From Mesotaenium endlicherianum (Eukaryota): a stretch of 53,345 bases of DNA. The translations under genes were made by a program, and so were the position numbers. Shown here in pieces: positions 5,572 to 27,303 of this stretch. Position 1 is the first letter of the stretch. Each line of letters begins with the position of its first letter. The notes under the pieces were generated by a model. It was not told the DNA's origin. It saw nothing but the letters and a program-made list of their open reading frames with translations, and ran no database searches. The stretch spans positions 1 to 53,345 of the forward strand of contig WELA01003458.1 of NCBI GenBank assembly GCA_009602735.1, written 5' to 3'.

Positions 5572-7250
5572 TTGTTGTCACTTGCAAGCGGTGTGGGGTT
5601 ATCGATATTGAATCGGGGAGCGCCCGGTCCGCTGTTCTTATTAACATTGATCAAAGCAGGCGTATAAGCCAGTACCAATATGATGATCATGGCAATGATC
5701 CAGGGTTTGAACTGGTCGAACAAAGGCACTCTTTTTTCATCGTGATAAGCTTCGCTTACCGGAATTTCCAGCGAGCCTGCTGCTTTTCTCTTCCGCAGAA
5801 TGGTTCCGAAGAAAGCTATAATAAACAACATGCCGGCAGTGAACATTACAATGCCCCCCATCATGGCCAGTGTGGTCGTAGGAACCCAGTCGCTGCGGAA
5901 TAATTCGCTCTTAGGGTTGAGATAACTGATGCCCAGGTTGGTCCTTCTTGGTTCTCCGCGCAACCCTCCCCAGCTCATACCGAAAGAAAAGACCAGCATA
6001 CCCATCATCCACAAATAGGGAACGATGGTAACGATCTTACGCATGAATACCGGTTTTCCACTCATACCTGAATAGAGATACAGGCTCATACCCACAATAG
6101 CAAGGAATACCGGTCCGGCTACCGTCATGTGAAAATGCCCGGGTAACCATGCTGTATTGTGCACTACTGTATTCAGGGAATAAGAAGCATTGATGATACC
6201 GGTAACGCCACCGAAAATAAAAAGGATGAGTCCGCATATAAAATAAGAGAACAGGAAATTGTTTTCATCGAACCAGGGTAGTTTTTTCATCCATCCGAAC
6301 AATCCTTTCGCGCCTCTTTGTCTTCCTGCATATTCCAGTGATGCTGCTAATGTAAACGCAGTGATGAAACTGGGAATAGTTACGCCATAGGTAAGCATTC
6401 CCTGGAAAAATTTAACTCCTTGTGTAATGGAAGGATCGCTGTATTGATGGTGCACACCTACGGGAACAGAGAAGAGCAGGAACAGGAACAGCGCCATTCT
6501 GCCGGCCAGATCAGAGTAGAGCTTTCCGCCCGCCACTTTAGGCAAAATGGTATAGAACATGATATAAGCCGGTAACAACCAGAAATACACCAGTGCGTGG
6601 CCAAAGAACCAGAACAGGGTCCTGGCGAGGGCCACATTTACAGTGGTTGTCCAGCCCAGCGACCAGGGTACCAGTAATACCAATACCTCATATGCCACTG
6701 CCAGGGTGCACACAAACCAAATGGTGAAATTTATCAATGTACCGATAACAGCCAACGGCGTCTTGGTTTCGGCATGAACTTTCTTCCATTGCGTGTACAT
6801 CACGGCCCAGTTAAAAAAAGGCACCCAGGATCCTACGATGAGCAATGCCGTTCCGATATAAAACAAAGGATGCGCTTTCAATGGCGGGTAAAAAGTATAC
6901 AATACCGATGCTTTTCCTGCCAGCATGGCCCAGGATGCCATCAACGTTCCGCCCAGCATCAGTGCAAAGCTGAACCACATTAATTTTTTATTAGGCTCCT
7001 GTTTGAGGTAATAGGTCATGGTGGCGTGACCGAACGCTACTGCAAAAAAAGTTGTAAGCACAATGGCGTTGATCACACCATGCAGGGTCAGGCCCTGGTA
7101 ATAACCCAGTTTGGCAAAAGAAGTGTCCTGTAACACACCGGCACGGTAAATGGTTTGCATCAGTCCGTGGTAGATACCAATGATCAGCAGCGCAACGGGG
7201 ATGGACAATTCCAGGAAAATGATTCGTTTAAAAGTCTTTGATACTTGCAT
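5568..7250 (-). CDS. cbaA: B-family (ba3-type) heme-copper oxygen reductase subunit I
   Basis: YYQGLTLHG, FWFFGHALVYFWLLPAY (His-Tyr crosslink), GVHHQY, VHNTAWLPGHFH, PRRT. Start set at ATG 7250. Confidence 0.93.
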   Translation of the reverse strand: MQVSKTFKRIIFLELSIPVALLIIGIYHGLMQTIYRAGVLQDTSFAKLGYYQGLTLHGVINAIVLTTFFAVAFGHATMTYYLKQEPNKKLMWFSFALMLGGTLMASWAMLAGKASVLYTFYPPLKAHPLFYIGTALLIVGSWVPFFNWAVMYTQWKKVHAETKTPLAVIGTLINFTIWFVCTLAVAYEVLVLLVPWSLGWTTTVNVALARTLFWFFGHALVYFWLLPAYIMFYTILPKVAGGKLYSDLAGRMALFLFLLFSVPVGVHHQYSDPSITQGVKFFQGMLTYGVTIPSFITAFTLAASLEYAGRQRGAKGLFGWMKKLPWFDENNFLFSYFICGLILFIFGGVTGIINASYSLNTVVHNTAWLPGHFHMTVAGPVFLAIVGMSLYLYSGMSGKPVFMRKIVTIVPYLWMMGMLVFSFGMSWGGLRGEPRRTNLGISYLNPKSELFRSDWVPTTTLAMMGGIVMFTAGMLFIIAFFGTILRKRKAAGSLEIPVSEAYHDEKRVPLFDQFKPWIIAMIIILVLAYTPALINVNKNSGPGAPRFNIDNPTPLASDNK

Positions 7251-13392: not shown

Positions 13393-14607
13393 GTGCAAAT
13401 CGGAACATCTATACAACACCCTTCTTTACCCGTGTTGGAAAAGCGTTTATACCGGATCTCCTTATTCAATCTCTTTCTTGTTTCGCTTATTGGCTTGTAT
13501 CTGCGTTCTGCCCCGGTAGCAAGCATCTGGACCGGGTCGTATAAAAATATATTACACGCCCATTCTCATTTCGCATTTGGCGGGTGGATCATGCCGGCGC
13601 TGGTAGCCTTGATCATCCGGTTCTTTCCTGAACTGGCCAACACTATTACATACAAGCATTGGAGGAATCTTTCGGTACTGCTACTGATAGCCGCATATGG
13701 CATGCTGGGCAGTTTCCCCTTCCAGGGATATGGTCCGGTCAGTATTTGCTTTTCTACATTGTCTATCATTGCCTCTTTTTATCTCGCCTGGCTGGTGTGG
13801 CGCGCGAGGGTTTCAGGCAAAGACAGTATTGCGCATCAATTTCTCCGGGCAGGTCTGTTTTACCTGGTGCTTTCATCAGCCGGCCCGTTCGCCACTGCAC
13901 CTCTTATTGCCATGGGCAAGGCTGGTAGCGCATTATATTTCAACGTCATTTATTTTTATCTGCACTTTCAATACAATGGCTGGTTCACTTTTGCCTTACT
14001 GGCTGTATTATATAAAATAACCGGTCATGCACCAGGACGTTATAGTAAAAACGCCTTCGCATTATTTAACATCTCCTGTATTCCCGCTTATTTTCTTTCG
14101 GTATTGTGGAGCCATCCCGCTCCTGCATTTTTCATAATAGCCACAGTAGCTGCTATTTTACAGTTGATTGCGCTGTTTTACCTGCTGGCCGATATCGTTG
14201 ACAATAACAGTAACCGCCGGCTGAATGGTTTGGTAAGGTTATCGCTGGGCATATTTGCCATGAAGATCATCCTGCAGTTACTCGGCGCTTTCCCAGCCAT
14301 TGCAGACATGAGTTATCTTCACCGGAATTTTATCATAGCTTATCTCCACCTGGTATTATTAGGCTTCGTCACTTTCTTCATCATGGGTGCAATGCATTTG
14401 CATGAATCACCGACGGAAAGGTCTTCCAAAAAATGGAGCATTTTATTCATTGCTACCTGGGTATTCACAGAAGGATTGTTGTTATTGCAGGCCACAGGAG
14501 AAGTGGCAGATTTTCAGATACCCAATTTTACAACATGGTTGTTCCTTGCAAGCTGTTTTTTCCCGGTAGCCATTCTGGGTATCTGGGTTAAAGATCTTTC
14601 TTCCTGA
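13393..14607 (+). CDS. Polytopic His-containing membrane protein (distant NnrS / heme-copper subunit I-like)
   Basis: About 12 TM segments with HAHSHFAFGGW, YLHFQYNGWF and YLHLVLLGF. The ORF is open from 13351; the start is uncertain and GTG 13393 was chosen from the promoter position. Confidence 0.75.
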   Translation: MQIGTSIQHPSLPVLEKRLYRISLFNLFLVSLIGLYLRSAPVASIWTGSYKNILHAHSHFAFGGWIMPALVALIIRFFPELANTITYKHWRNLSVLLLIAAYGMLGSFPFQGYGPVSICFSTLSIIASFYLAWLVWRARVSGKDSIAHQFLRAGLFYLVLSSAGPFATAPLIAMGKAGSALYFNVIYFYLHFQYNGWFTFALLAVLYKITGHAPGRYSKNAFALFNISCIPAYFLSVLWSHPAPAFFIIATVAAILQLIALFYLLADIVDNNSNRRLNGLVRLSLGIFAMKIILQLLGAFPAIADMSYLHRNFIIAYLHLVLLGFVTFFIMGAMHLHESPTERSSKKWSILFIATWVFTEGLLLLQATGEVADFQIPNFTTWLFLASCFFPVAILGIWVKDLSS

Positions 14608-15355
14608 ATATTTTCAGTGTAAGGAGCAAGGGCAGCGCTATCCACAGCAGCATAATACCCGTGGTAAAAGCAATACCCCAACCACTTCCGAAAAAAGATT
14701 TATATAAAGCACCTGTATATCCCATCAGGGCGCTTACATCCATCTTCAGCATAATGAAAATGCGCCCAAGATCTATCGGGTTGAGTGCAGATAATAACAA
14801 AGTGAATTTTTCCATCGGGTAATCGCTGAAAGCGAATAATATCAGTAAAACAAGTCCGTCGTATATCAATGCAAAATAAAACCATAATAATAAAGCGGCG
14901 CCAATACCTTTTGCCTTATCCCTTGCTTTTACAGAAGCAAGGAATGCGATAGAAGTAAAAGCCAATGTGAGTGCCGATCCGGTAAGCAAAAACGCAATAC
15001 CTGTTGCATCAAAAGCATAAATCAATACCGGTATCCCCACTCCCACCAAATAAGCAGCGGTCAGAGATGCCGATACACCTACGTATTCGCTTAAAAGTAT
15101 CCGGGTGCGGCTTAATGGCTGCGACAGCATCAGTTCTATAAATTCATAAGAGTTATAATAATGTATAGTGGTGAAGATCATACTAATCAAGGGGATGACG
15201 ATCAGCACAATGGTAAGCAGGCTCATCAGGGCTTTACTTTGATTCTCTTCCAGTTGAAACAAGCTAAGCGAAACCAACAGCAAGAATAGCGTATATACAA
15301 TGATTACCCTGTTACGGAGAATATCATACAGCACATAACGTGATAGTTTTCGCAT
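14588..15355 (-). CDS. nosY: NosY ABC transporter permease
   Basis: ELMLSQPLSR and LNPIDLGR motifs, multi-TM, follows nosF. Confidence 0.9.
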   Translation of the reverse strand: MRKLSRYVLYDILRNRVIIVYTLFLLLVSLSLFQLEENQSKALMSLLTIVLIVIPLISMIFTTIHYYNSYEFIELMLSQPLSRTRILLSEYVGVSASLTAAYLVGVGIPVLIYAFDATGIAFLLTGSALTLAFTSIAFLASVKARDKAKGIGAALLLWFYFALIYDGLVLLILFAFSDYPMEKFTLLLSALNPIDLGRIFIMLKMDVSALMGYTGALYKSFFGSGWGIAFTTGIMLLWIALPLLLTLKIFRKKDL

Positions 15356-15363
15356 AAAGCTTA

Positions 15364-16131
15364 TTAATTTGATTGATTATTTGTTTCCAGCATCAACACC
15401 TCGTCAATCCACAATGCGCTCTTTTTCTCTCCGTTCATGATACGGGCGATGGCCTTTCCTAATTTCTCTTCGCCAGTTTCTTTTCGCAGCTGTTCTATGC
15501 CTTTCAAAAAGATCATTTTCCCTTCCTGCAAATACATAACATGAGTGGTAAGATCATCGAGGTCACTGAGAATATGTGAAGTGATGAGGATGAGTTTGTT
15601 TTTTTGTTTCTCCTCCATGATCTTGGCTTTCAATATTTCCGATGAAAGCGGGTCGAGACCGGCGGTTGGTTCATCCAGGATGAGGATATCGGGATTGAAA
15701 TAAAAAGCCAGGGCTGCACTCACTTTCTGCCTGGTGCCGCCACTCAGCGTGCGCATGGGCTTGTCAAAAATAGAAGCCAGGTTGAATTTCACGAGCAGGT
15801 CGGTATCCAGCGCTGCCTCCGTTTTCATCCGGATGTCTTTCATCATAGTAAACAATTGCCCTACCCTCATATTATCAGGATAACGGCCTATCTGTGGCAT
15901 ATAACCGATGTGTTCCCGGTAAGCCGGGTCGTTCCCAATCTGTTGCCGGTTGATGAATATTTTTCCGGCATCTGGTCTTACCAGGCCCAATAAGGTTTTG
16001 ATAAGTGTTGTTTTCCCCGACCCGTTAGGTCCGATCAGGGATACCACCTGCCCCTCTGCAAAGAGCGCATTGATATCATCCAACACTTGCAGTCGCTTGA
16101 ATTTCTTTTTCAGGTTTTCTATTCTGATCAT
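15364..16131 (-). CDS. nosF: NosF ABC ATPase
   Basis: GPNGSGKTT, LSGGTRQK, ILILDEPTAGLDP; nos context. Confidence 0.92.
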   Translation of the reverse strand: MIRIENLKKKFKRLQVLDDINALFAEGQVVSLIGPNGSGKTTLIKTLLGLVRPDAGKIFINRQQIGNDPAYREHIGYMPQIGRYPDNMRVGQLFTMMKDIRMKTEAALDTDLLVKFNLASIFDKPMRTLSGGTRQKVSAALAFYFNPDILILDEPTAGLDPLSSEILKAKIMEEKQKNKLILITSHILSDLDDLTTHVMYLQEGKMIFLKGIEQLRKETGEEKLGKAIARIMNGEKKSALWIDEVLMLETNNQSN

Positions 16132-17360
16132 ATTTTCAATGGCTTTATCATCGGCTGACGGTCTACCAGGTTCTCCGGTGTGAGGCTGGGTATGGCCTTT
16201 TCCGCCTTATCGAGAAGGGTTACCATGAAGCTTCTCATAAGGATCATGGTTCCGGGCGTTTGCTCCACAATCATGGAATACATACTTACCGGGTGATAGG
16301 GTACGTCGCCAACCCCGTTTCTATCGATATCATAGCCTTCATATTTATCCCAATAATTGTTGTGCAATTTGTTCAGCACCATGGTGCCATTAGTAGCCAA
16401 ATCGAAACTGTTGCCAAAAAAATTGTTGTGATGAAAAACGTTATCGTCGCAACTCGCCTGTACTTTAACCGCCCAGCCGTTATTTCTGAAAATATTGCGC
16501 TCTATCTCTATCCTGCTCGCGCCCTCCATATAAATACCCGTTGTGTTCTTAAGGAATAAGTTGCTAACAATATGGCTATCTGTGATCTCTTTCAGCAAAA
16601 GTCCATATGACGAAGCGCCCCAGTTTGCTTCAAAGTGGTTACGCTCCATGGTCACATGTTTGGAATACATCACAGCAACCCCGGCTCCGTTGTTACGAAA
16701 AATATTTTCGATATAATGATCACCATGGGAAAACATGAAATGCAAGCCATACCGGATATTTTTTTCACTCAGGTTCTTCCGGATAACCGATTCCGTTACA
16801 AATTCAAAATAGATGCCATCGCGGTAGCCGGTTACCTGGTTGCCTTCTATCAATGCATGGTTACTCTTCCATAAATGAATGCCATTGCCGGTCAATTGCT
16901 CCGTCTTGGGTATCCCTACAATCCTGTTGTTGCGGATAGTGCAGTAGGCTGCATTAGAAATATGAAAAGCGAAATAAGCATCATATACCAGGTTATCTTC
17001 CAGTAATACATAACTGGCATCAATCAGTTTTACCGCAGCATAATCGTTCAATGCCGAATAACCCGCATGATGGAATTGCAATTTTTTAATAGTAACATGG
17101 CTCCCGCTGATAACGAGTAATTCCTGTTTATGATCGCCATCCAGTATGGTATTGCCTTCACCCAAAACAGTGACCGGCCGGGTAATCACTATCCTGCCTT
17201 CTTTGTATACGCCATTGCGGAGCCTTATGGTATCGCCGTCCCTGGCCAGTTGCACAGCGGCTGTCAGTGTTTTCACAGGTTGCCCAACGCCCGCTACAAT
17301 GGTGCGGGCCAGCGTTACATGTGAACAGATCAACCACGATATGAGGAATAAAAACCGCAT
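16128..17360 (-). CDS. nosD: NosD maturation protein
   Basis: GNGIHLW, RDGIY, RYGLHFMFS, NYWDKYEGYD...GVGD.PY. Confidence 0.96.
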   Translation of the reverse strand: MRFLFLISWLICSHVTLARTIVAGVGQPVKTLTAAVQLARDGDTIRLRNGVYKEGRIVITRPVTVLGEGNTILDGDHKQELLVISGSHVTIKKLQFHHAGYSALNDYAAVKLIDASYVLLEDNLVYDAYFAFHISNAAYCTIRNNRIVGIPKTEQLTGNGIHLWKSNHALIEGNQVTGYRDGIYFEFVTESVIRKNLSEKNIRYGLHFMFSHGDHYIENIFRNNGAGVAVMYSKHVTMERNHFEANWGASSYGLLLKEITDSHIVSNLFLKNTTGIYMEGASRIEIERNIFRNNGWAVKVQASCDDNVFHHNNFFGNSFDLATNGTMVLNKLHNNYWDKYEGYDIDRNGVGDVPYHPVSMYSMIVEQTPGTMILMRSFMVTLLDKAEKAIPSLTPENLVDRQPMIKPLKI

Positions 17361-17364
17361 TGCT

Positions 17365-18396
17365 TTATTTCAATTTAGCCTGTACAGCTTCCCAGTCCAG
17401 TACAACATAAGATGATGTATCAACTATTTTTGCCTGGGCCGCAGCTTTTGTTTTAAAGCCGGCTGTATTGCCACCCATCGGACTTTTCAATGTGTTACCG
17501 TTTAAAAAACTGGCATCCTGGGCCTTGAGAAAAGTATTCGGCTGATCAAAATCAACGACCCAGGATTGCGCCAGTCCATTATCTTTCCGGTCATTCATGC
17601 GCATATAGGAAATCATACATTTCAGGTCATCGAATTTGTATGTCTTTCCTTTTCCAGTGATGATCTCGCCTCCATACCGGGTATCGCTGATGCCCATTTT
17701 ACAGAACGTGCAAAAATCTTTTCCTGGCTGAAAGGGTTCAGGTGATGCAGGAGAACATGCGTTCAGCAAAAACAGCATTATGCAAACTACAGCCACAGCA
17801 GGCGCCGCCCGCCTGCTCGCTTTTCTATGGCGATACCATTCCATAAACCATACCACGAAAGAGAGACAGCCGGCAGCGATCACTACCCATCCACCCACAC
17901 CGGGCAGGGAATAGGCATCGAAATTCAACAACCGCTTATGCCCTAACAATGGAGGCTGATAGGAAAGTCCCGGCACTTGTATAGGCGCTTTTGGATCCAG
18001 GTTATGCCCGTAATCATAGCCCCACTGGTAAAAATCATACATAGCCAGTAACCCGCCCAGGAGGGTGAGTAATAAATACAGGAATAAGACCTTTCGCTTG
18101 CCGGTAATAGCTACTGTTACACCCAGTAACATGAAAAACAACACCACATAAGGCAGGAAACGGAATTCCGGAAACATAGCAACTGTAATATGTTTCATGC
18201 CTATATAATGATTGAGGCCGTTGATCACATCCACATCACCCGATATTCCGTTGATCCATATATTCATGGTCAGTCCCTCCGGATACTGTGGTGCAAAAAG
18301 ATCAATACGCCATGCAGGAAGAAAGAAAACAACAATCAATGCTCCTGATGCAAATGCCACCAGTATCCGCGATACAATACTCAATTGATTGTTCAT
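17365..18396 (-). CDS. nosL: NosB-like membrane domain fused to NosL
   Basis: APQYPEGL, INGLNHYIGM, YGHNLDP.API (NosB-like) followed by CTFCKM, FDDLKCM, SPMGG (NosL). Confidence 0.9.
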   Translation of the reverse strand: MNNQLSIVSRILVAFASGALIVVFFLPAWRIDLFAPQYPEGLTMNIWINGISGDVDVINGLNHYIGMKHITVAMFPEFRFLPYVVLFFMLLGVTVAITGKRKVLFLYLLLTLLGGLLAMYDFYQWGYDYGHNLDPKAPIQVPGLSYQPPLLGHKRLLNFDAYSLPGVGGWVVIAAGCLSFVVWFMEWYRHRKASRRAAPAVAVVCIMLFLLNACSPASPEPFQPGKDFCTFCKMGISDTRYGGEIITGKGKTYKFDDLKCMISYMRMNDRKDNGLAQSWVVDFDQPNTFLKAQDASFLNGNTLKSPMGGNTAGFKTKAAAQAKIVDTSSYVVLDWEAVQAKLK

Positions 18397-18411
18397 ATTG
18401 ATAGGTTAATA

Positions 18412-18439
18412 TGCGGTCTCTTATTATAAAGAGACCGCA
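18412..18439 (-). terminator. Stem-loop between nosZ and nosL (partial terminator or mRNA stabiliser)
   Basis: 11-bp perfect stem tgcggtctctt / aagagaccgca with 6-nt loop and a weak U-tract. Confidence 0.6.
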
Positions 18440-18449
18440 CAAGATTTGC

Positions 18450-20459
18450 TTATTTGGTTTTTCCATCGGTTGCTTTATAATCAGCCGCCGCTTTAATTGT
18501 ACCGGTTCCGTATATGATAGGAACATTCGATCCGGGAGCGCTTACCCTAATGTATCCTTGCATTTCCTGGTGAAGTGCAGAACAGAAGTCGGTGCAATAG
18601 AAGGGAAATACACCCGCTTTTTCAGGTACCCATTTCAATGTTTGTGTTTCGCCCGGCATGATCAGCAGCTCTGCATTGTTGGCGCCCTTGATGGCAAAGC
18701 CATGCGGAATGTCCCAGTCCTGCTCCAGGTTGGTAACATGGAAATAGACGGTTTCTCCCAGCTTCACCCCTTCTATATTATCAGGCGTAAAGTGCGAACG
18801 GATAGCAGTCATGTACACATGCACTTCATTGCCTTTGCGTTCTACCCTCGTATAATTATCGCCTTTGGCTGCAGCCGGGTGGGCATTTTCTTCTATCTTA
18901 TAGATCTTCTGGCTGTTCTTCATTACCAGCTCTGCAGGGATGGCCTCTCCATAGTGCGGTTCTCCTATGGTAGGGAAATCAAGCAGCAATTTCATCTTAT
19001 CACCGCTGATATCATAGAGCTGTGCACTTTGCGACAACTCCGGTCCGGTAGGCAGGTAACGGTCTTTCGTGATCTTGTTATAAGCGATCACATACTTACC
19101 CCAGGGTTTCCGGGTAGGTCCGCCTGGAACACTCAGGTGTCCGATAGAATAATAGGTAGGTACACGATCGAGTACTTTCAGGTCTTTGATATTCCATTTC
19201 ACAATTTCCGATGAAACAAAGAAAGAAGTATACGCATTTCCCTGATCGTCGAACTCTGTATGCAGCGGGCCTAATCCCGGTTTCTGCACTTCTCCGTGCA
19301 AGACCGCATCGTACTTCAACACAGGGATATCGTCATACGTGCCATCGAAATTTTTATCGGCAATCGCTTTCTGTATTTTGGTGAAGGAAAACACCGGAAT
19401 GGTAGCCGCCAGCTTGCCACTGCCTACTATGTATTCACCGGTAGGATCGGTATCGCACCCGTGGGGTGATTTGGGACAGGGCATGAAATAAACCATATCG
19501 GGACAATCTTTTGGATCCAGTACCAATACTTCATTCATAGTAGTTGAAGTAGCTGAGTGTTTTTTCTCGTCGTATTGATTATGGGTATATTTCACTGTTT
19601 TTTTAACGCCTTTACCGGCTTTCAGGTATTCTTCTGCTTTTTTCCAGTTCACTGCCATAATAAAATCCTTATCCTTTTGAGATGCATTCACTTCGAGCAA
19701 AGTGTTGGCTTTTTCTGAGTTATAGCAACTGAAGAATACCCAGCCATGTGACTTTCCTTTGCCGGCACGCGCCAGGTCGAAGTTGACACCAGGGGTCAGT
19801 ATCTGGAAAGCCAGGTTCATTTCACCTGAATTTTTATCTATGTTGATGAAGCTAACTGTTCCTTTGAAATTTTGTTTATAAGAACTAATCGGTACATCGG
19901 TATGATCTCCGAGGGGTATACTGAAACGGGTGCCTGCCACTACATACTCTGAATTTTCCGTAATAAATGGTGACGAGTGGTTGCCGGCACTATTGGGTAT
20001 CTCAATAATTTCAACAGTGCGGAAAGTTTTCAGGTCAACCCTTGCGATACGTGGCGTATTGTTGGCATTGGCAAACACCCATCTTCCATCGTGCAGGCCA
20101 TCTGTTTCTGATAATGCAATATGGTGCAAGTCATCCCAGGGAATAAAGCCGTTGGATGTGTTCAGCATGGCTTTGCTTTCTTCGCTGTAGCCATATCCTT
20201 TTTCCGGATCTACAGAGAAAACCGGGATCACACGGAGCAGCCGGCCGGATGGCAAACCATAGACCGACATCTGTCCGCTGAATCCTCCCGAAACAAAATC
20301 GTAAAACTCATCGTATTTACCGGGTGCAACATAGGTTTTCAAAGCAGCATCACCGCTGATAGCAGCCTGTGAGCCTTTGGGTTTGCATCCCAACATTTGC
20401 AAGGATGCACCTGCCAGCACCAGTGTTGCGAGCAGGGTTTTGTGGGAAAAGAATTTCAT
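18450..20459 (-). CDS. nosZ: Sec-dependent (clade II) nitrous-oxide reductase
   Basis: CuZ His motifs DLHH, GNH, PKSPHG, GPLH, IGH, EPH; CuA PHGF and CTDFCSALHQEM; no twin-arginine signal; SGGFSGQ..VYGLPSGR. Confidence 0.98.
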   Translation of the reverse strand: MKFFSHKTLLATLVLAGASLQMLGCKPKGSQAAISGDAALKTYVAPGKYDEFYDFVSGGFSGQMSVYGLPSGRLLRVIPVFSVDPEKGYGYSEESKAMLNTSNGFIPWDDLHHIALSETDGLHDGRWVFANANNTPRIARVDLKTFRTVEIIEIPNSAGNHSSPFITENSEYVVAGTRFSIPLGDHTDVPISSYKQNFKGTVSFINIDKNSGEMNLAFQILTPGVNFDLARAGKGKSHGWVFFSCYNSEKANTLLEVNASQKDKDFIMAVNWKKAEEYLKAGKGVKKTVKYTHNQYDEKKHSATSTTMNEVLVLDPKDCPDMVYFMPCPKSPHGCDTDPTGEYIVGSGKLAATIPVFSFTKIQKAIADKNFDGTYDDIPVLKYDAVLHGEVQKPGLGPLHTEFDDQGNAYTSFFVSSEIVKWNIKDLKVLDRVPTYYSIGHLSVPGGPTRKPWGKYVIAYNKITKDRYLPTGPELSQSAQLYDISGDKMKLLLDFPTIGEPHYGEAIPAELVMKNSQKIYKIEENAHPAAAKGDNYTRVERKGNEVHVYMTAIRSHFTPDNIEGVKLGETVYFHVTNLEQDWDIPHGFAIKGANNAELLIMPGETQTLKWVPEKAGVFPFYCTDFCSALHQEMQGYIRVSAPGSNVPIIYGTGTIKAAADYKATDGKTK

Positions 20460-20483
20460 CTGTCTGTTATTTGCGTTATAGGA

Positions 20484-20954
20484 TTATTTTTCTCCGTCGT
20501 TGTTCCGCATGAATTCCAGCACTTTGCGGGCGTCTTCTTTGACCAGGTTCTGGTTGGGCATGCGCACCATACACTGTTCCAGCAGTTTTTGTGCATCGGG
20601 GTCCTTCTCCAGCATCATGTCTACGTTGGTAATCATATTCATGATCCAAACAGGCTTTCTGCGTTTGGTAACATCTTTCCATCCTGGTCCCACCAGTTTC
20701 TCACCGCTAAGGCGGTGGCAGGACTGGCACTTCATTTCATAAATGCCTTTACCGGCGCTTACCCATTCTGCATTCAATGGGTTTGAAACAATTACATCGG
20801 ATTCTTTTAATTCGGCGCCATGTGTTTCAGGTTGGTTTTTGGTCATTTCCTGAACATCTACCGGTTTTTCGTCTTTTTTAACCCCTTCTGAACAAGCCAC
20901 TGCCAGTAGGGTTCCGGAGAGTAAACAGATCGTTAATGGTCGGATGATTTGCAT
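20484..20954 (-). CDS. Lipoprotein cytochrome c at the head of the nos operon
   Basis: LAVAC lipobox, CQSCH, VRMPNQ. Start set at ATG 20954. Confidence 0.92.
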   Translation of the reverse strand: MQIIRPLTICLLSGTLLAVACSEGVKKDEKPVDVQEMTKNQPETHGAELKESDVIVSNPLNAEWVSAGKGIYEMKCQSCHRLSGEKLVGPGWKDVTKRRKPVWIMNMITNVDMMLEKDPDAQKLLEQCMVRMPNQNLVKEDARKVLEFMRNNDGEK

Positions 20955-21011
20955 GGTATTATTTTTTAGTGAATGCACATTTATTAAGAGAGTCTTTTGT
21001 CTTTTATTGAT

Positions 21012-21107
21012 CAAAAGTATCCTGCCTGCCGTGCCTCATATATGACCAATCTCAAAAAAGTGAATGATCTTTATCAGGAAGGATGGAAACAGGCATTTTT
21101 ATTTTTG
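21012..21107. promoter_or_regulatory. Divergent nos / RIC-paralog promoters sharing two Crp/Fnr-type sites
   Basis: TACTTTTG (-) 21019-21012; ATGAC-caat-CTCAA 21042-21055; ATGAT-cttt-ATCAG 21064-21077; TATTTTTG (+) 21100-21107. Confidence 0.72.
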
Positions 21108-21941: not shown

Positions 21942-23180
21942 ATGCTGGACCAGGCTCATATGACGTCTTTATTCGAGAATGCCACCGAAGGTATCATCCT
22001 TACGGGCCATCACGGCAATATCGTATTGGTAAACCCTGCAGCAGAGCGTATGTTTGGCTACCAGAATAAAGAGATCATTGGTCAGCCCATTGAAATATTG
22101 ATCCCTGCGCAGTTCAAGGCACACCATCACCATTTGAGAGATGGGTTTTACAAAACCCCTTCCAACCGTGTGATGGGCCAGGGGCGGGATCTGTTTGGCA
22201 AAAAAAAAGACGGCTCAAATATTCCCGTTGAAGTGAGCCTGAGTCATTATAAAAAAGACGACGAACTGTTCGTGATCGCCTTTATCGTAGACATTACACG
22301 CCGGAAAGAGATCGAACAGAATATGCTGGAGCAGCAAAAAGAACTGCAAAAAGTATCTACCGAGATCAGGAAGCTGAACGCCGAGCTGGAAGTGAAAGTA
22401 GAAGAACGAACGGTTATCCTTAAAGAAGCGCTTCAAAAACTGGAACAGTCGCAAAGAGAGCTGAGCGAAGCGCTTGATAAAGAAAAACAATTGAGTGAGA
22501 TCAAAAGCCGTTTTGTTTCTATGGCTTCGCATGAATTCAGAACGCCTCTCAGCACCGTTTTATCTTCCGCTTCGCTATTAGCTAAATATACCACTACCGA
22601 AGAGCAGGAAAAACGGAGCAGGCATATCGATAAGATCAAAAGCTCTGTACGCCACCTGAATGATATACTGGAAGATTTTTTATCCCTCGGAAAGTTGGAT
22701 GAAGGAAAAGTAGCAATATCCATCTCAGGATTCGATCTCAAATCATTCATCGATGACACCACGGAAGATATGAAGGGTCTGTTGAAAAAAGGGCAGCATA
22801 TCCAGGTGGATTATAGCGGGGAGCATTTCATTCATTCTGATAAAAAATTATTGCGGAATATTACCATTAACCTCATTACCAATGCCATTAAGTTTTCCGA
22901 TGAAGACAGTGGTATCAGCATACAGACCTCCGTTAACGATGAAATTGCCTCCATTACGGTAACTGATCATGGTATCGGTATTGCACCTGAAGACCAGGTG
23001 CATTTATTTTCCAGTTTCTTCCGGGGAGCCAATGCCAACAATATTGCCGGTACCGGGCTGGGGCTGCATATTGTGAAACGCTATACCGATCTGCTGCAAG
23101 GTCAAACAAAATTGGAAAGTGAACTCCAAAAAGGAACACGTGTAACCATATCCATTCCTGTAAATCATCCTGCTTCATGA
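21942..23180 (+). CDS. Cytoplasmic PAS sensor histidine kinase (FixL-like)
   Basis: NPAAERMFGY...IG..IEILIP....HH......RVMGQGR..GKKKDGS..PVEVSLS; H-box SHEFRTPL; NAIKF, DHGIG, GTGLGL; no TM segment. Confidence 0.93.
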   Translation: MLDQAHMTSLFENATEGIILTGHHGNIVLVNPAAERMFGYQNKEIIGQPIEILIPAQFKAHHHHLRDGFYKTPSNRVMGQGRDLFGKKKDGSNIPVEVSLSHYKKDDELFVIAFIVDITRRKEIEQNMLEQQKELQKVSTEIRKLNAELEVKVEERTVILKEALQKLEQSQRELSEALDKEKQLSEIKSRFVSMASHEFRTPLSTVLSSASLLAKYTTTEEQEKRSRHIDKIKSSVRHLNDILEDFLSLGKLDEGKVAISISGFDLKSFIDDTTEDMKGLLKKGQHIQVDYSGEHFIHSDKKLLRNITINLITNAIKFSDEDSGISIQTSVNDEIASITVTDHGIGIAPEDQVHLFSSFFRGANANNIAGTGLGLHIVKRYTDLLQGQTKLESELQKGTRVTISIPVNHPAS

Positions 23181-24232
23181 AAACCATCTTAGTCATCGAC
23201 GATAATACAGATATACGCGACAATACTGCGGAAATCCTGGAAATGTCCGGTTACAAAACATTTACTGCCGAAAACGGTAAGAAGGGTGTAGAGGTAGCCA
23301 TCAGGGAAAAGCCAGACCTGATCGTTTGCGATATTATGATGCCCGAGCTCGATGGATATGGGGTACTGCACCTGCTCCGCAAAAACCCCCAGACGCAATT
23401 CACTCCCTTTATTTTTCTTACAGCCAAAACAGAACGTGCCGATCTTAGGAAAGGTATGGAGATGGGGGCTGATGATTATATCACGAAGCCTTTTGAAGAC
23501 ATTGAACTGCTGAATGCCATTGAAGTGAGGCTGAAAAAAATACAGTTTCTGGGACATCATTACGCTATGTCGCCATCCGGTATCAGCCAGTTCCTGAAAG
23601 ATGTAAAAGATACGGGGAGTTTTGGTCAGCTGGCAGAGCAATACAGCATCGAAACATACAGCAAAAAACAACCTTTATATCATGAGGGAAAGCGCCCCCG
23701 CTATCTCTATTACCTCGTAAGGGGGAAGGTGAAAGCTTTTAAAATACATGAAGACGGCAAAGAATATATTACCGATATTTTCAGCGACGGCGATTTCATC
23801 GGATACCATGCATTGATCAACGATTCGAATTATGCAGACAGTACCATGATACTGGAGGAAGCGGAGATCATGCAGATCCCCAGGGAAGATTTTTTGCAGA
23901 TGATCTATAAAGACATCCAGGTGGCCGCCAAATTCATACACATCATTACACAAAACATCAAAGAGAAAGAAGAAAGGCTTATCAGCCTGGCTTACAGTTC
24001 TCTCAGAAAACGTGTAGCAAAAGCTCTGGTAGACATTCATAGTAAATACAACAGCAATGGGGGTTCGAACCCCATTGAAATATCCCGGGACGATATTGCT
24101 CATTACATTGGTACTGCAACGGAATCACTCATTCGCACCCTTAGCGATTTTAAAGCAGAAAAACTGATACAGATCAAAGAAAGCAAGATCATCATTACCG
24201 ATATCGGCAAGTTGCAGAACCTGTTGTATTAA
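23177..24232 (+). CDS. Response regulator: REC plus cNMP-binding-like plus Crp/Fnr HTH
   Basis: VIDD..CDIMMP..LTAK..ITKPF receiver; SRDDIAHYIGTATESLIRTLSDF Crp HTH; ATGA overlap with the kinase. Confidence 0.93.
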   Translation: MKTILVIDDNTDIRDNTAEILEMSGYKTFTAENGKKGVEVAIREKPDLIVCDIMMPELDGYGVLHLLRKNPQTQFTPFIFLTAKTERADLRKGMEMGADDYITKPFEDIELLNAIEVRLKKIQFLGHHYAMSPSGISQFLKDVKDTGSFGQLAEQYSIETYSKKQPLYHEGKRPRYLYYLVRGKVKAFKIHEDGKEYITDIFSDGDFIGYHALINDSNYADSTMILEEAEIMQIPREDFLQMIYKDIQVAAKFIHIITQNIKEKEERLISLAYSSLRKRVAKALVDIHSKYNSNGGSNPIEISRDDIAHYIGTATESLIRTLSDFKAEKLIQIKESKIIITDIGKLQNLLY

Positions 24233-24684
24233 AACCACGACTCAATACTGTCTTCTTCCTGCGGCACTCCTTTCTGGACGCCTGTTACCGGCTCGGACTT
24301 TAAAGGCGCGATGCTTTTGGGACGTGTTTTTTTATGTTGTATCCGGGCTTCTTCTACCTGGGCGCCTTCTTCAATATCCAGTACAGGGCAGTTGAGTTTA
24401 CCCCTGATACGCGCAGTATTGGCAATGACGGCCTTCTTACTGCTGGAAATATCTCCTTCCACTGTTCCGAATACCAGCAGGTCAGACGCATCTATATTCC
24501 CATTGACCACTCCGGTTTCGCCAATTACCAGCTTATCCTCTGCAACGATATCACCCATCACCGTGCCGTCGATCCTTCCTGCTGTGGCAGCGTTGATGTT
24601 TCCGTGTACGATCACTCCCCTGGAAAGAAAAAAGCCAGCGGTATGTGCACTTTGTAAAATATTTTTCAGACTTAACAGGCTCAT
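24229..24684 (-). CDS. Bactofilin (polymer-forming cytoskeletal protein)
   Basis: Beta-helix repeats GRIDGTVMGDI..LVIGETGVVNGNI.A..L.VFG.VEGDI.....ARIRG.L....LDIEEGA. Confidence 0.9.
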   Translation of the reverse strand: MSLLSLKNILQSAHTAGFFLSRGVIVHGNINAATAGRIDGTVMGDIVAEDKLVIGETGVVNGNIDASDLLVFGTVEGDISSSKKAVIANTARIRGKLNCPVLDIEEGAQVEEARIQHKKTRPKSIAPLKSEPVTGVQKGVPQEEDSIESWF

Positions 24685-25754
24685 TGCTTATGGGGAGTGG
24701 GTGTGGGAGTAGCTGGCGTCAGGTCTTTATCCTGGAATACCGATACCGTAGTGCTTGAATTCCCAATGTCGATGCCCACACTTCGCTGCTGCTTGCCATC
24801 GGATATACGGAATGAATTATACAGGTAACCAATGCTGGCCAGTTTTTCAGGTTCTGGCGCCACTTCCACCTGGATACTTCCATTGAATTCATTTTTAAAC
24901 GCTTCAACCAGCTCCGGGTAATAAGCGCCGCCACCCATGAGGTAAATTTTTTCACAGATTTCAAAATCCTGGTCGTTGAAATACTTGTTCAGCAGCAAAT
25001 AGATCACTTCCCTGAAATACTGGTTGAGTATACTTTTGCGCAAACCTTTGATATCTACATTTTCACGGTTGATGAAAATAGACCCCTTGCGAAACGCATC
25101 ATCCAATTGGTGCACGTTTTTCATTTTGAGGTAATAGCGCTTGCTTAACTCCTGGTGAAGATTATCGATGGCATATTGTAATCCATAAGAGCTGAAGCAG
25201 GTGCGGTGTACGAGCCCGTTTTCCGTTGCCATCCCTCCTTCAATGGTTCCAAAGCCCAGGCTGATGGCAATGAAATTCGTAGGAGGTTTGTTGCCGAGTA
25301 TTTTTTTCAGTCCGATGATACATCCTACGATCTCCGGTATGACATCAAAATTATCAACATCGAATGTGGTTCGTTTAACACTTCCATTTACATTATAGGT
25401 CTGGGTATCGTATTCAGCCATGAAATGCCTTTTACTGAGGAATTGTTCAGCGTTTGTCTTGTACACACTGTACGTAGAAAACGGAAAACCCATTGTAACA
25501 GCAACGGGTTGTTCTACTTGTGCGGCTACGGTAACAAGCGCCGATTTAAACAATACTTCATAGTCTTCCAGTTGTGGTGAAGCATTGGTGACATGGTTGG
25601 GATTGACACCGGCTCTTTTTGCCAGGTTGCCCACCATGTACCAGGTGTCTTCTTTTTTGATTTTTAATCCGTTCAGCAAGTCCTTAGCAGAATTTTCGGT
25701 ATTGCCGAAGGTGGTTTCCAGCACACTGGGGAAGTTAACAGTTAATACTTTCAT
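24681..25754 (-). CDS. ParM/StbA-like actin-family ATPase, apparently circularly permuted
   Basis: FPSV, YMVG..A, TMGFP, VIPE (connect-1), ISLGFGT (phosphate-2), LMGGGA (adenosine), LASIGY (connect-2), then VGIDIGNSSTTV (phosphate-1-like) near the C-terminus. Confidence 0.85.
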   Translation of the reverse strand: MKVLTVNFPSVLETTFGNTENSAKDLLNGLKIKKEDTWYMVGNLAKRAGVNPNHVTNASPQLEDYEVLFKSALVTVAAQVEQPVAVTMGFPFSTYSVYKTNAEQFLSKRHFMAEYDTQTYNVNGSVKRTTFDVDNFDVIPEIVGCIIGLKKILGNKPPTNFIAISLGFGTIEGGMATENGLVHRTCFSSYGLQYAIDNLHQELSKRYYLKMKNVHQLDDAFRKGSIFINRENVDIKGLRKSILNQYFREVIYLLLNKYFNDQDFEICEKIYLMGGGAYYPELVEAFKNEFNGSIQVEVAPEPEKLASIGYLYNSFRISDGKQQRSVGIDIGNSSTTVSVFQDKDLTPATPTPTPHKQ

Positions 25755-25950
25755 CTAATACTTTATTTTAATAGTCAGGTAGACAGGGGAAAGGGCACTC
25801 AATTCAGAGTAAGTAGAGTTGATGCAATAGCAAGTGTTCTTTAAGTATTAGTATGGGCAGAAATATGCTACCAATATCAAGCCAAATTTGTTTTGGCAAG
25901 TAATTATTCTAATAAATAATTGATAAATTATCTTGAATTTCATTAAAATC

Positions 25951-25991
25951 AAGGAGCCCTGGCCAGCATGCTGCACTGACCAGGGCTCCTT
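25951..25991 (-). terminator. Hairpin after the glycan operon
   Basis: aaggagccctgg / ccagggctcctt 12-bp stem just downstream of the 26008 stop. Confidence 0.7.
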
Positions 25992-26007
25992 ACCGGAAGA
26001 CTTTTCT

Positions 26008-27303
26008 TTATTGCAAGGCACCAAAGTCGATCATTGGCTTCTCTTTACCCGGTGCATGCGCGAACACAGATCGCAACACCGTATTGTTACTGAAAAATCC
26101 GCCGTTACGCAGGAAGAAAGCGCCATTTTCTTCTCCACCGCTATAATCTATGCGATACCCTTTTTGCGCGGTGGCATCGCCGGTGAACACCATTTTGGTA
26201 AGCGGTAACCAATCACTGCTCTTGGGTTTTACCCATTGATTTTGGTAAAAAGCTTTACGTGTAACATTCCCCATAGAGGGATCGAAATTTTCCAGGAAAG
26301 AATGCAAACGCGTTAAATAAGTATGGGTATGCGGACGGCTGAAACTGGCAATCAATAACCACTTATGCTCTTCCGGTGCATAGAAATAAGCGGTATAGTT
26401 GGTATACTCATTGGCAACCGGCTCTGCATGCAACAGGAAACGATAAGTCTCACCGGCTTGCCAATTGTATTTCAGGTAACTCTGTCCCCCAGCGCCTTCG
26501 TTGCCAAATTCTCCTGCGTGTACCTGTTCTCCTTTTTTCAATAACCTGATCTTTTGATCTTCGGGTATGGACCTGGGGTCATCGGTTTTGAACGGACTCC
26601 ACACAGAAAACAATACACGCCTTTCTGTTGTTGAATTTACCTGTATCCCAAAATAGCCTTCGGCAAATCCATCAGCCATAAAATAAGAACCAACAGGATC
26701 GCTTCCTATGGGCACTTTTATTTCATTATAGAACCATTCTATTTCGTTGCCGGTTCCGGAGAGATCATAATTGATATGCACCGAAGGGCCTCTTCTTCCC
26801 CAATAAAAATAATTGCCCTGGTTGTCTTTTACATACTTTGCTTCGGCATCAACCGATGTGCCACTCAGGTGCAACTCGCTGATCGTTGCAAATTCAGTTC
26901 CTGTTTTTTTAAGTCCCGCTATGTCTATTTTAACATAGCCTGCGGGAACAGTCCATTCGCCGAACTCGTATTCTTTTGGGGCAGCATCACTTACCCTGAC
27001 TTTTTTTGCAACACCATTAATAGTGCACTGTAGTTCCGATTGTCCTTTCTCTACTACAACAGGAGCTGTTATTTTCAATGTTCCCGGCTTAGCCAGTTTC
27101 ACATAAGTGCTGAACACGGCTTTTGCATTCCGCCATTCTTTCCATCCTTCATTGGTTACTTTTTCCGATGCACTTCCCGCACGCACAGTAACCCATGAAT
27201 TACCACCCACAGGAACTGTAAGCGTTGTATCGCCGGTTGCCCGGAAAGCGGATACCCCTGCCACACACATAACAACAATGATCGACCAATATCGCTTTCT
27301 CAT
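26008..27303 (-). CDS. DUF5077/DUF3472 secreted protein
   Basis: YWGRRGPSVH, GYFGIQVNS.TERRVLFSVWSP, FGNEG.GGQS, HSFLENF. Confidence 0.88.
   Translation of the reverse strand: MRKRYWSIIVVMCVAGVSAFRATGDTTLTVPVGGNSWVTVRAGSASEKVTNEGWKEWRNAKAVFSTYVKLAKPGTLKITAPVVVEKGQSELQCTINGVAKKVRVSDAAPKEYEFGEWTVPAGYVKIDIAGLKKTGTEFATISELHLSGTSVDAEAKYVKDNQGNYFYWGRRGPSVHINYDLSGTGNEIEWFYNEIKVPIGSDPVGSYFMADGFAEGYFGIQVNSTTERRVLFSVWSPFKTDDPRSIPEDQKIRLLKKGEQVHAGEFGNEGAGGQSYLKYNWQAGETYRFLLHAEPVANEYTNYTAYFYAPEEHKWLLIASFSRPHTHTYLTRLHSFLENFDPSMGNVTRKAFYQNQWVKPKSSDWLPLTKMVFTGDATAQKGYRIDYSGGEENGAFFLRNGGFFSNNTVLRSVFAHAPGKEKPMIDFGALQ

Follow-up and report, generated by a model that had tools for sequence, protein, structure and literature searches.

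In a 53,345-nucleotide stretch of DNA (contig WELA01003458.1 of GenBank assembly GCA_009602735.1, filed under Mesotaenium endlicherianum; hereafter the window, meaning the whole stretch analyzed) we identified a minus-strand cassette of two genes. One encodes a 357-residue actin-fold protein of the ParM/Alp type (P0001, 24681-25754), recognized by Pfam ALP_N, an AlphaFold2 (AF2) model and structure matches, and the other a 151-residue bactofilin (P0002, 24229-24684). The evidence from sequence and predicted structure supports well a circular permutation of the actin, which would start at strand beta3 and end with the phosphate-1 beta1-beta2 hairpin (GIDIGN). On balance, and with some caution, we favor the view that the two proteins form a module of two filaments: a bactofilin bound to the membrane would tether the permuted actin through a tail ending in Trp-Phe (WF), taking the place of the adaptor ParR, and the module would serve an accessory role in cell shape or wall growth.

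To our knowledge, the order of the chain in actin folds is normally fixed. The permuted order found here was constant in 121 proteins (the best 120 of 302 homologs, plus the query) and in the 54 permuted rows of the tree described below, down to ~20% identity. None of the 121 carried a DxG motif within its first 40 residues and 119 carried GxDxGN within the last 70, while the remaining two, which have longer tails, retain the motif in the alignment. Within the phosphate-1-like hairpin (residues 325-340, 24735-24782, minus strand, as are all cassette features below), G327, D329, G331 and N332 were invariant in all 120 aligned rows. No in-frame DxG was found 5' of the actin start in any of 80 genomic loci; in the window itself a TAG stands in frame immediately 5' of the ATG, from which the chain opens MKVLTVNFPS. 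The stretch is gap-free and in one piece in contigs of three of four runs, two of which may be the window's own source.

Profile comparisons place the missing N-terminal segment at the other end of the chain. Pfam ALP_N matches the actin (E = 8.5e-11, 42.7 bits against a cut-off of 26.3) only from profile position 18, and MreB-like_C matches it below cut-off. Searched with a profile, 1.84 billion representatives yielded 176 matches, and among the best 150, which were taken further, the full-length proteins divide into permuted and canonical ones. When the two groups were aligned as profiles, permuted residue 6 corresponded to canonical residue 23 (probability 99.9), and the canonical proteins stopped where the permuted C-terminal hairpin starts. 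A hidden Markov model of the canonical N-terminal hairpin, which scores low in permuted proteins, had its top score in the last fifth of the chain in 103 of the 104 close proteins with a match (120 scanned) and in 21 of 23 diverse permuted proteins with a match (30 scanned).

The AF2 model of the actin (predicted local distance difference test score, pLDDT, 84.9; predicted template modeling score 0.86) has confident strands at residues 325-330 and 334-340. Structure comparison with VIA gave Z = 27.1 to Dh-cParM1 (8x1i; model residues 1-322 against chain residues 22-364), 26.4 to pCBH ParM (6ixw) and 24.7 to Ta0583 (2fsj), with root-mean-square deviations of 2.7-2.9 Å over 288-306 residues at 16-19% identity, followed by 24.1 to a CorM structure (9rmi) and 17.7 to R1 ParM (4a61); Foldseek also matched the model to Ta0583 (E = 8e-15). 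In these sequential alignments the top ParM structures join model residue 1 from chain residue 18-22 onward and end at model residue 317-322, so that Dh-cParM1, pCBH ParM and Ta0583 start ~20 residues earlier, with an N-terminal hairpin where the present actin has a C-terminal one. The vacant beta1-beta2 slot of the fold is, we infer, taken by the hairpin. The linker that precedes it tolerates insertions of up to ~20 residues and in this respect resembles a surface loop. That a conserved phosphate-1 hairpin can stand at the other chain end suggests that the actin fold tolerates new termini beside its nucleotide site. A permuted actin of this kind escapes motif and profile annotation, having no named match in NCBIfam and yielding nothing useful in sequence searches of solved structures.

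The other ParM/Alp motifs, connect-1 (PE/PQ), adenosine (GGG) and connect-2, are all present. The IPE motif (25332-25340), in which P140 and E141 are invariant, aligns with the PQ of canonical relatives, and its alignment makes E141 the likely catalytic residue, a role we ascribe by presumed equivalence to E148 of ParM. In the adenosine motif (MGGGA, residues 270-280, 24915-24947), G274 and G276 are invariant. The phosphate-2 motif (SLGFGTIE, residues 161-174, 25233-25274) has Ser for the canonical Asp and otherwise preserves DxGxGT; the Ser recurs in all 120 of the close permuted proteins and in 29 of the 30 diverse ones, and Asp stands there in 25 of 33 canonical relatives. A preliminary description of this DNA, which had interpreted the cassette as a chromosomal module of actin and bactofilin, overlooks both the circular permutation and this replacement.

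That description was right about the arrangement of the genes, including their coordinates and strand and the overlap of the actin stop with the bactofilin start as ATGA (24681-24684). It had set a survey of gene neighborhoods beforehand as a check, and the pairing recurred: species genomes yielded 120 relatives, and at the best 80 of these loci, all Chitinophagales, a bactofilin lies directly downstream of the actin without exception, with gaps of -8 to 65 nt. Flanking genes vary between lineages, and among open reading frames (ORFs) of 70 residues or more, only the bactofilin recurs at every one of the 80. Across an even sample of the phylum Bacteroidota the actin occurred in 21 of 401 genomes, and within the family in 21 of 301, each count including the nearest genome; 17 of the 24 full-length actin places in the phylum sample had a bactofilin within ~1.5 kb downstream. 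Two genomes (G001, the nearest, and G361) hold two cassettes each, every one with its own bactofilin, and the second, divergent cassette of G001 (L120:7669-9135) has a bactofilin that ends in RWI. A separate MreB was found in all five carrier genomes tested.

The cassette is chromosomal, as the preliminary description held, and patchy in distribution. It sits on multi-megabase contigs, its GC content is level with its surroundings, and the actin had no match in 72,556 plasmid and 50,697 phage records and no true relative in scans of viral contigs. The earlier statement that no ParR-like adaptor, parC-like array or mobile-element gene lies nearby also held in our scans of the window. Integrases, transposases and Rep genes were absent from the 46 window ORFs scanned against Pfam, two of which have no family. 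The search for parC, confined to 23900-26300 of the window, found no repeat array there, where the families consist of two to three loose copies. Scans detected no tRNA in the window and no Rfam match in 23000-27000.

The bactofilin matches PF04519 at residues 19-111 (E = 2.6e-23, 82.5 bits against a cut-off of 27.9). Its N-terminus (24634-24684) is predicted to be membrane-targeting and, in agreement with the preliminary description, amphipathic: the hydrophobic moment is 0.54 compared with 0.32 for shuffled sequences, only 15 of 2000 of which were as high, and it exceeded that of shuffles in all 27 homolog N-termini parsed (64 aligned). At the other end, a variable acidic tail (24232-24351) terminates in an invariant WF (24232-24237), a candidate actin-docking motif. 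All 80 Chitinophagales bactofilins end in WF, with the rest of the tail variable, and among 668 other ORFs, 13 have Trp at one of the two final positions; as judged from these sequences, the invariance of the WF means that the tail end is under strong selection. Throughout the phylum, W or F stood within the last two residues in 15 of the 17 places where the bactofilin is linked to an actin, compared with none of eight unlinked bactofilins of the same genomes. The unlinked proteins mostly adjoin M23 peptidases (four of four scanned neighbors), and such bactofilin-M23 modules have reportedly been described. Bactofilin tails are, in the accessible text of one study, mostly poorly conserved, with the tail of BacP binding its client (PMC12448750).

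To place the permuted proteins, we built a quick LG+G4 tree of 54 permuted and 33 canonical proteins with the hairpin cut from all rows, the canonical set being what the profile reached. One branch separates permuted from canonical proteins (Shimodaira-Hasegawa-like approximate likelihood ratio test support 93), which, at the sequence level, is consistent with a single origin of the permutation. One long branch in the tree is the P0255 cluster, a very distant permuted actin of which one member is labelled Silvanigrellaceae by its source. On the permuted side, every Bacteroidota locus falls in one clade (36 rows, support 99), whose sister is a 17-row clade (support 98), for which three metagenome loci were recovered (L122, L123 and L124). 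In two of these an ORF of ~115 residues follows the actin (L122:1308-1658 and L123:1096-1425; 40% identical over 68 residues), making it a candidate ParR-like adaptor. The L122 ORF had no match in Pfam, NCBIfam or PHROG, its model reached a pLDDT of 52.7 and its best VIA Z was 3.1; the ORF has two homologs, one of them itself. Its identity as ParR was not established, the weak VIA rows (Reg576, NikR, AmrZ, SvtR and SegB, Z 2-3, which we take to be ribbon-helix-helix proteins) lying below threshold. The third locus, which overlaps one of the other two, contains an array of 21-22 bp repeats (L124:2282-2490; 5.6 copies plus outliers) directly 5' of two overlapping ORFs without known family (L124:2569-3758), both array and ORFs lying 2 kb upstream of the permuted actin. 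The array looks like an iteron origin with a possibly frameshifted Rep; the identity of the ORFs as Rep was not established. The ~115-residue ORF and the 21-bp repeat array in the sister clade suggest that the permuted actin descends from a plasmid ParMR-like system. The one plasmid match of the sister-clade actin (CP074574, E = 9e-3) was set aside, being a canonical, unpermuted ParM.

We favor the docking of the actin by a membrane-associated bactofilin on the strength of the adaptor position of the bactofilin gene, the conservation of its tail, its amphipathic N-terminus and the precedent of CorMR/FcmBC. In such a module, the C-terminal hairpin would fill the vacant beta1-beta2 slot to give a complete, ATP-binding fold, and the actin would polymerize like ParM, with the replacement of the phosphate-2 Asp by Ser perhaps slowing hydrolysis. 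The N-terminal helix would place the bactofilin polymer on the inner membrane, displaying many acidic WF tails on flexible linkers, and these tails would dock on the actin as the C-terminal peptides of ParR and CorR do, so that actin filaments are anchored or nucleated. The two proteins would in this way add to MreB an accessory cytoskeleton at the cell cortex, whose role, as for CorMR/FcmBC, is most likely in cell shape or growth of the wall. Historically, the permutation would have arisen once, in a ParMR-like ancestor, and the bactofilin would have been taken up later as an adaptor in the Bacteroidota branch. The fuller version of this account, in which a circularly permuted branch of the actin superfamily derived from a plasmid ParMR-like system exchanged the DNA adaptor, in Bacteroidota, for a second polymer, a lattice of bactofilin on the membrane with acidic WF tails that both nucleate and anchor the actin, we put at slightly under even. 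Coupling of actin and bactofilin perhaps also lies behind filament-to-sphere shape switching in Chitinophaga.

Several observations weigh against the tethered two-filament module or the permutation that underlies it. Without the phosphate-2 Asp, ATPase activity could be weak or lost. The likeness of the hairpin to its canonical counterpart is modest when taken alone (hhalign E = 3e-4, probability 39%). Most of the 80 Chitinophagales loci come from Chitinophaga, and they do not count as independent. The actin is missing from 280 of the 301 family genomes searched and therefore is not core shape machinery. Seven of the 24 places in the phylum sample (L087-L090, L093, L095 and L100; five of them rechecked across 16-17 kb) have no bactofilin nearby while their actins are intact and conserved; the module proposed in the preliminary description thus stands as a conserved pairing but not as an obligatory one. 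The linked bactofilins of L096 and L101 lack an aromatic end, and a comparison of 14 with 7 sequences found no actin residue that co-varies with an aromatic-tailed partner, apart from one trivial L/I column.

An alternative is a role in positioning, where the same anchored pair would work differently, the bactofilin marking a pole or patch and the actin moving or spacing nucleoids or other cargo in long filamentous cells, as with BacNOP and ParABS in Myxococcus. The ParM ancestry of the actin speaks for such a role, as does published guidance of chromosome segregation by bactofilins, BacNOP reportedly organizing ParABS in Myxococcus; Chitinophaga pinensis, moreover, grows as filaments according to the accessible text of one paper (PMC13070061). 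We nevertheless consider positioning unlikely, since the vicinity of the cassette offers neither a cargo adaptor nor any further conserved gene, and the window holds neither a DNA-binding partner nor a repeat array. The intact actins that stand alone in seven of 24 places, the lack of a co-varying actin residue, the phosphate-2 Ser and the actin (L106) inserted in a common M23-bactofilin locus whose bactofilin has no aromatic end would instead suit co-expression without binding, with the WF tail contacting the membrane or another conserved protein, while the actin would work as a nucleotide switch in monomeric form or make filaments of its own. This seems quite unlikely to us, given that the aromatic end marks 15 of 17 linked and none of eight unlinked bactofilins and that the two genes stay coupled although all flanks vary.

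As another possibility, the cassette might serve, or be left over from, the partitioning of a plasmid or integrative element, its ParR and parC lost or acting from elsewhere. Patchy distribution, varied insertion sites and duplicate copies are what such an element would leave; the actin matches PHROG 691, annotated 'partition protein' (E = 5e-25), and the sister clade offers a ParR-sized ORF at L122 and L123 and 21-bp repeats on the single contig of L124. Against this stand a window devoid of ParR-like ORF, repeat array and mobile gene, a bactofilin that is the sole shared gene in 80 of 80 loci, the lack of a match in the plasmid and phage collections searched and a GC content equal to that of the surroundings, which together make a partition system very improbable. 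For the idea that the permutation is only apparent, produced by a wrong start or an assembly error, we found no support, and the in-frame stop directly 5', the same order in 121 proteins and contiguity in three of four runs render it exceedingly improbable.

Among known systems, the tethered module is best modelled in function, by analogy, on CorMR/FcmBC of filamentous cyanobacteria, a chromosomal ParM derivative that the product of the next gene brings to the membrane and that acts in cell shape beside MreB, as far as the available portions of the sources describe it (bioRxiv 10.1101/2025.06.27.661541, PMC12645912). The partner there is a ParR derivative rather than a bactofilin, CorM is nowhere described as permuted in those portions, and CorMR is conserved across whole orders whereas the present cassette is patchy. 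With type II ParMRC, typified by R1 ParM, the cassette shares the ParM/Alp fold, a small coupled downstream gene and a C-terminal peptide as the likely contact, but it has no ParR and no parC, lies off plasmids, and combines a permuted chain with the phosphate-2 Ser. It is thus ParM-derived but outside both ParMRC and CorMR as defined. Dh-cParM1, the best structural match, is likewise chromosomal, and ParR partners were sought for it; the main text of that study mentions no permut, bactofilin, Bacteroid or Chitinophag term (PMC12270681). The bactofilin itself resembles Caulobacter BacA and Myxococcus BacP (PMC12448750) in having a bactofilin core, a short hydrophobic N-terminal peptide and a disordered tail that could bind clients; the clients named in the accessible text are a wall synthase, PadC and M23 peptidases, compared with the candidate actin here, and an invariant terminal WF is unusual. 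We found no permuted actin and no actin-bactofilin operon in open PMC and bioRxiv papers, a body that leaves most subscription papers outside; the part of PMC7203096 searched (300,000 of 769,434 characters) contains neither permut nor bactofilin, and the text and one supplement of PMC13070061 mention neither actin, ParM nor bactofilin.

If the WF tail does bind the actin, two separate bacterial cytoskeletons would be linked, with an actin cytomotive filament coupled directly to a bactofilin scaffold. It would also provide, after CorMR, a second example of a partition actin put to another use by a new adaptor.

The cassette is preceded by an AT-rich leader of 195 nt (25755-25949), the presumed promoter, with a single Bacteroidota -7-like box at 25865 (one mismatch to the consensus) and no other promoter box. 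The hairpin that the preliminary description put at 25951 as a boundary of the pair is real (25950-25992, 19 pairs); it stands 5' of the pair, however, where it resembles a terminator of the preceding DUF5077/DUF3472 gene (which stops at 26008) and would set the cassette apart from that gene. The convergent gene noted at the other end, a response-regulator/Crp gene, was confirmed, its stop overlapping that of the bactofilin as TTAA (24229-24232). Within it, ~150 nt beyond the bactofilin stop, the minus strand has a short hairpin of terminator-like form (24055-24077), which could be the end of the cassette transcript.

The nearest named relative of the actin is that of Sediminibacterium magnilacihabitans, at 99% identity. 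Between 4328 and 23180 the window carries a nitrous oxide reductase cluster (cytochrome c, nosZ, nosL, nosD and ABC genes; nos at 14588-21014), a COX1/COX2/SCO oxidase cluster, hemerythrin/DUF542 iron-repair genes, Rrf2, and a PAS kinase with a response regulator-Crp fusion. A functional link of the cassette to these nos and PAS-Crp neighbors was rejected, the flank being common to the closest relatives only.

Several cassettes elsewhere depart from the common layout. At L051, in a metagenome-assembled genome, the actin gene near position 6001 apparently starts with ATA, not ATG. In L106 (7450-12488), a locus upstream of ATP synthase genes, the M23 peptidase and bactofilin genes are separated by the permuted actin and a TPR gene. 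L119:3-3051 holds tandem actins followed by two bactofilins, neither with an aromatic end, the upstream actin being cut by the contig end and its hairpin degenerate. At L109:4308-12720 a permuted actin without bactofilin lies directly 3' of a gene for a 1239-residue pentapeptide-repeat protein, another beta-helix; the actin is present in all three genomes of that genus, and a pentapeptide-repeat gene occurs in L088/L109 and L089.

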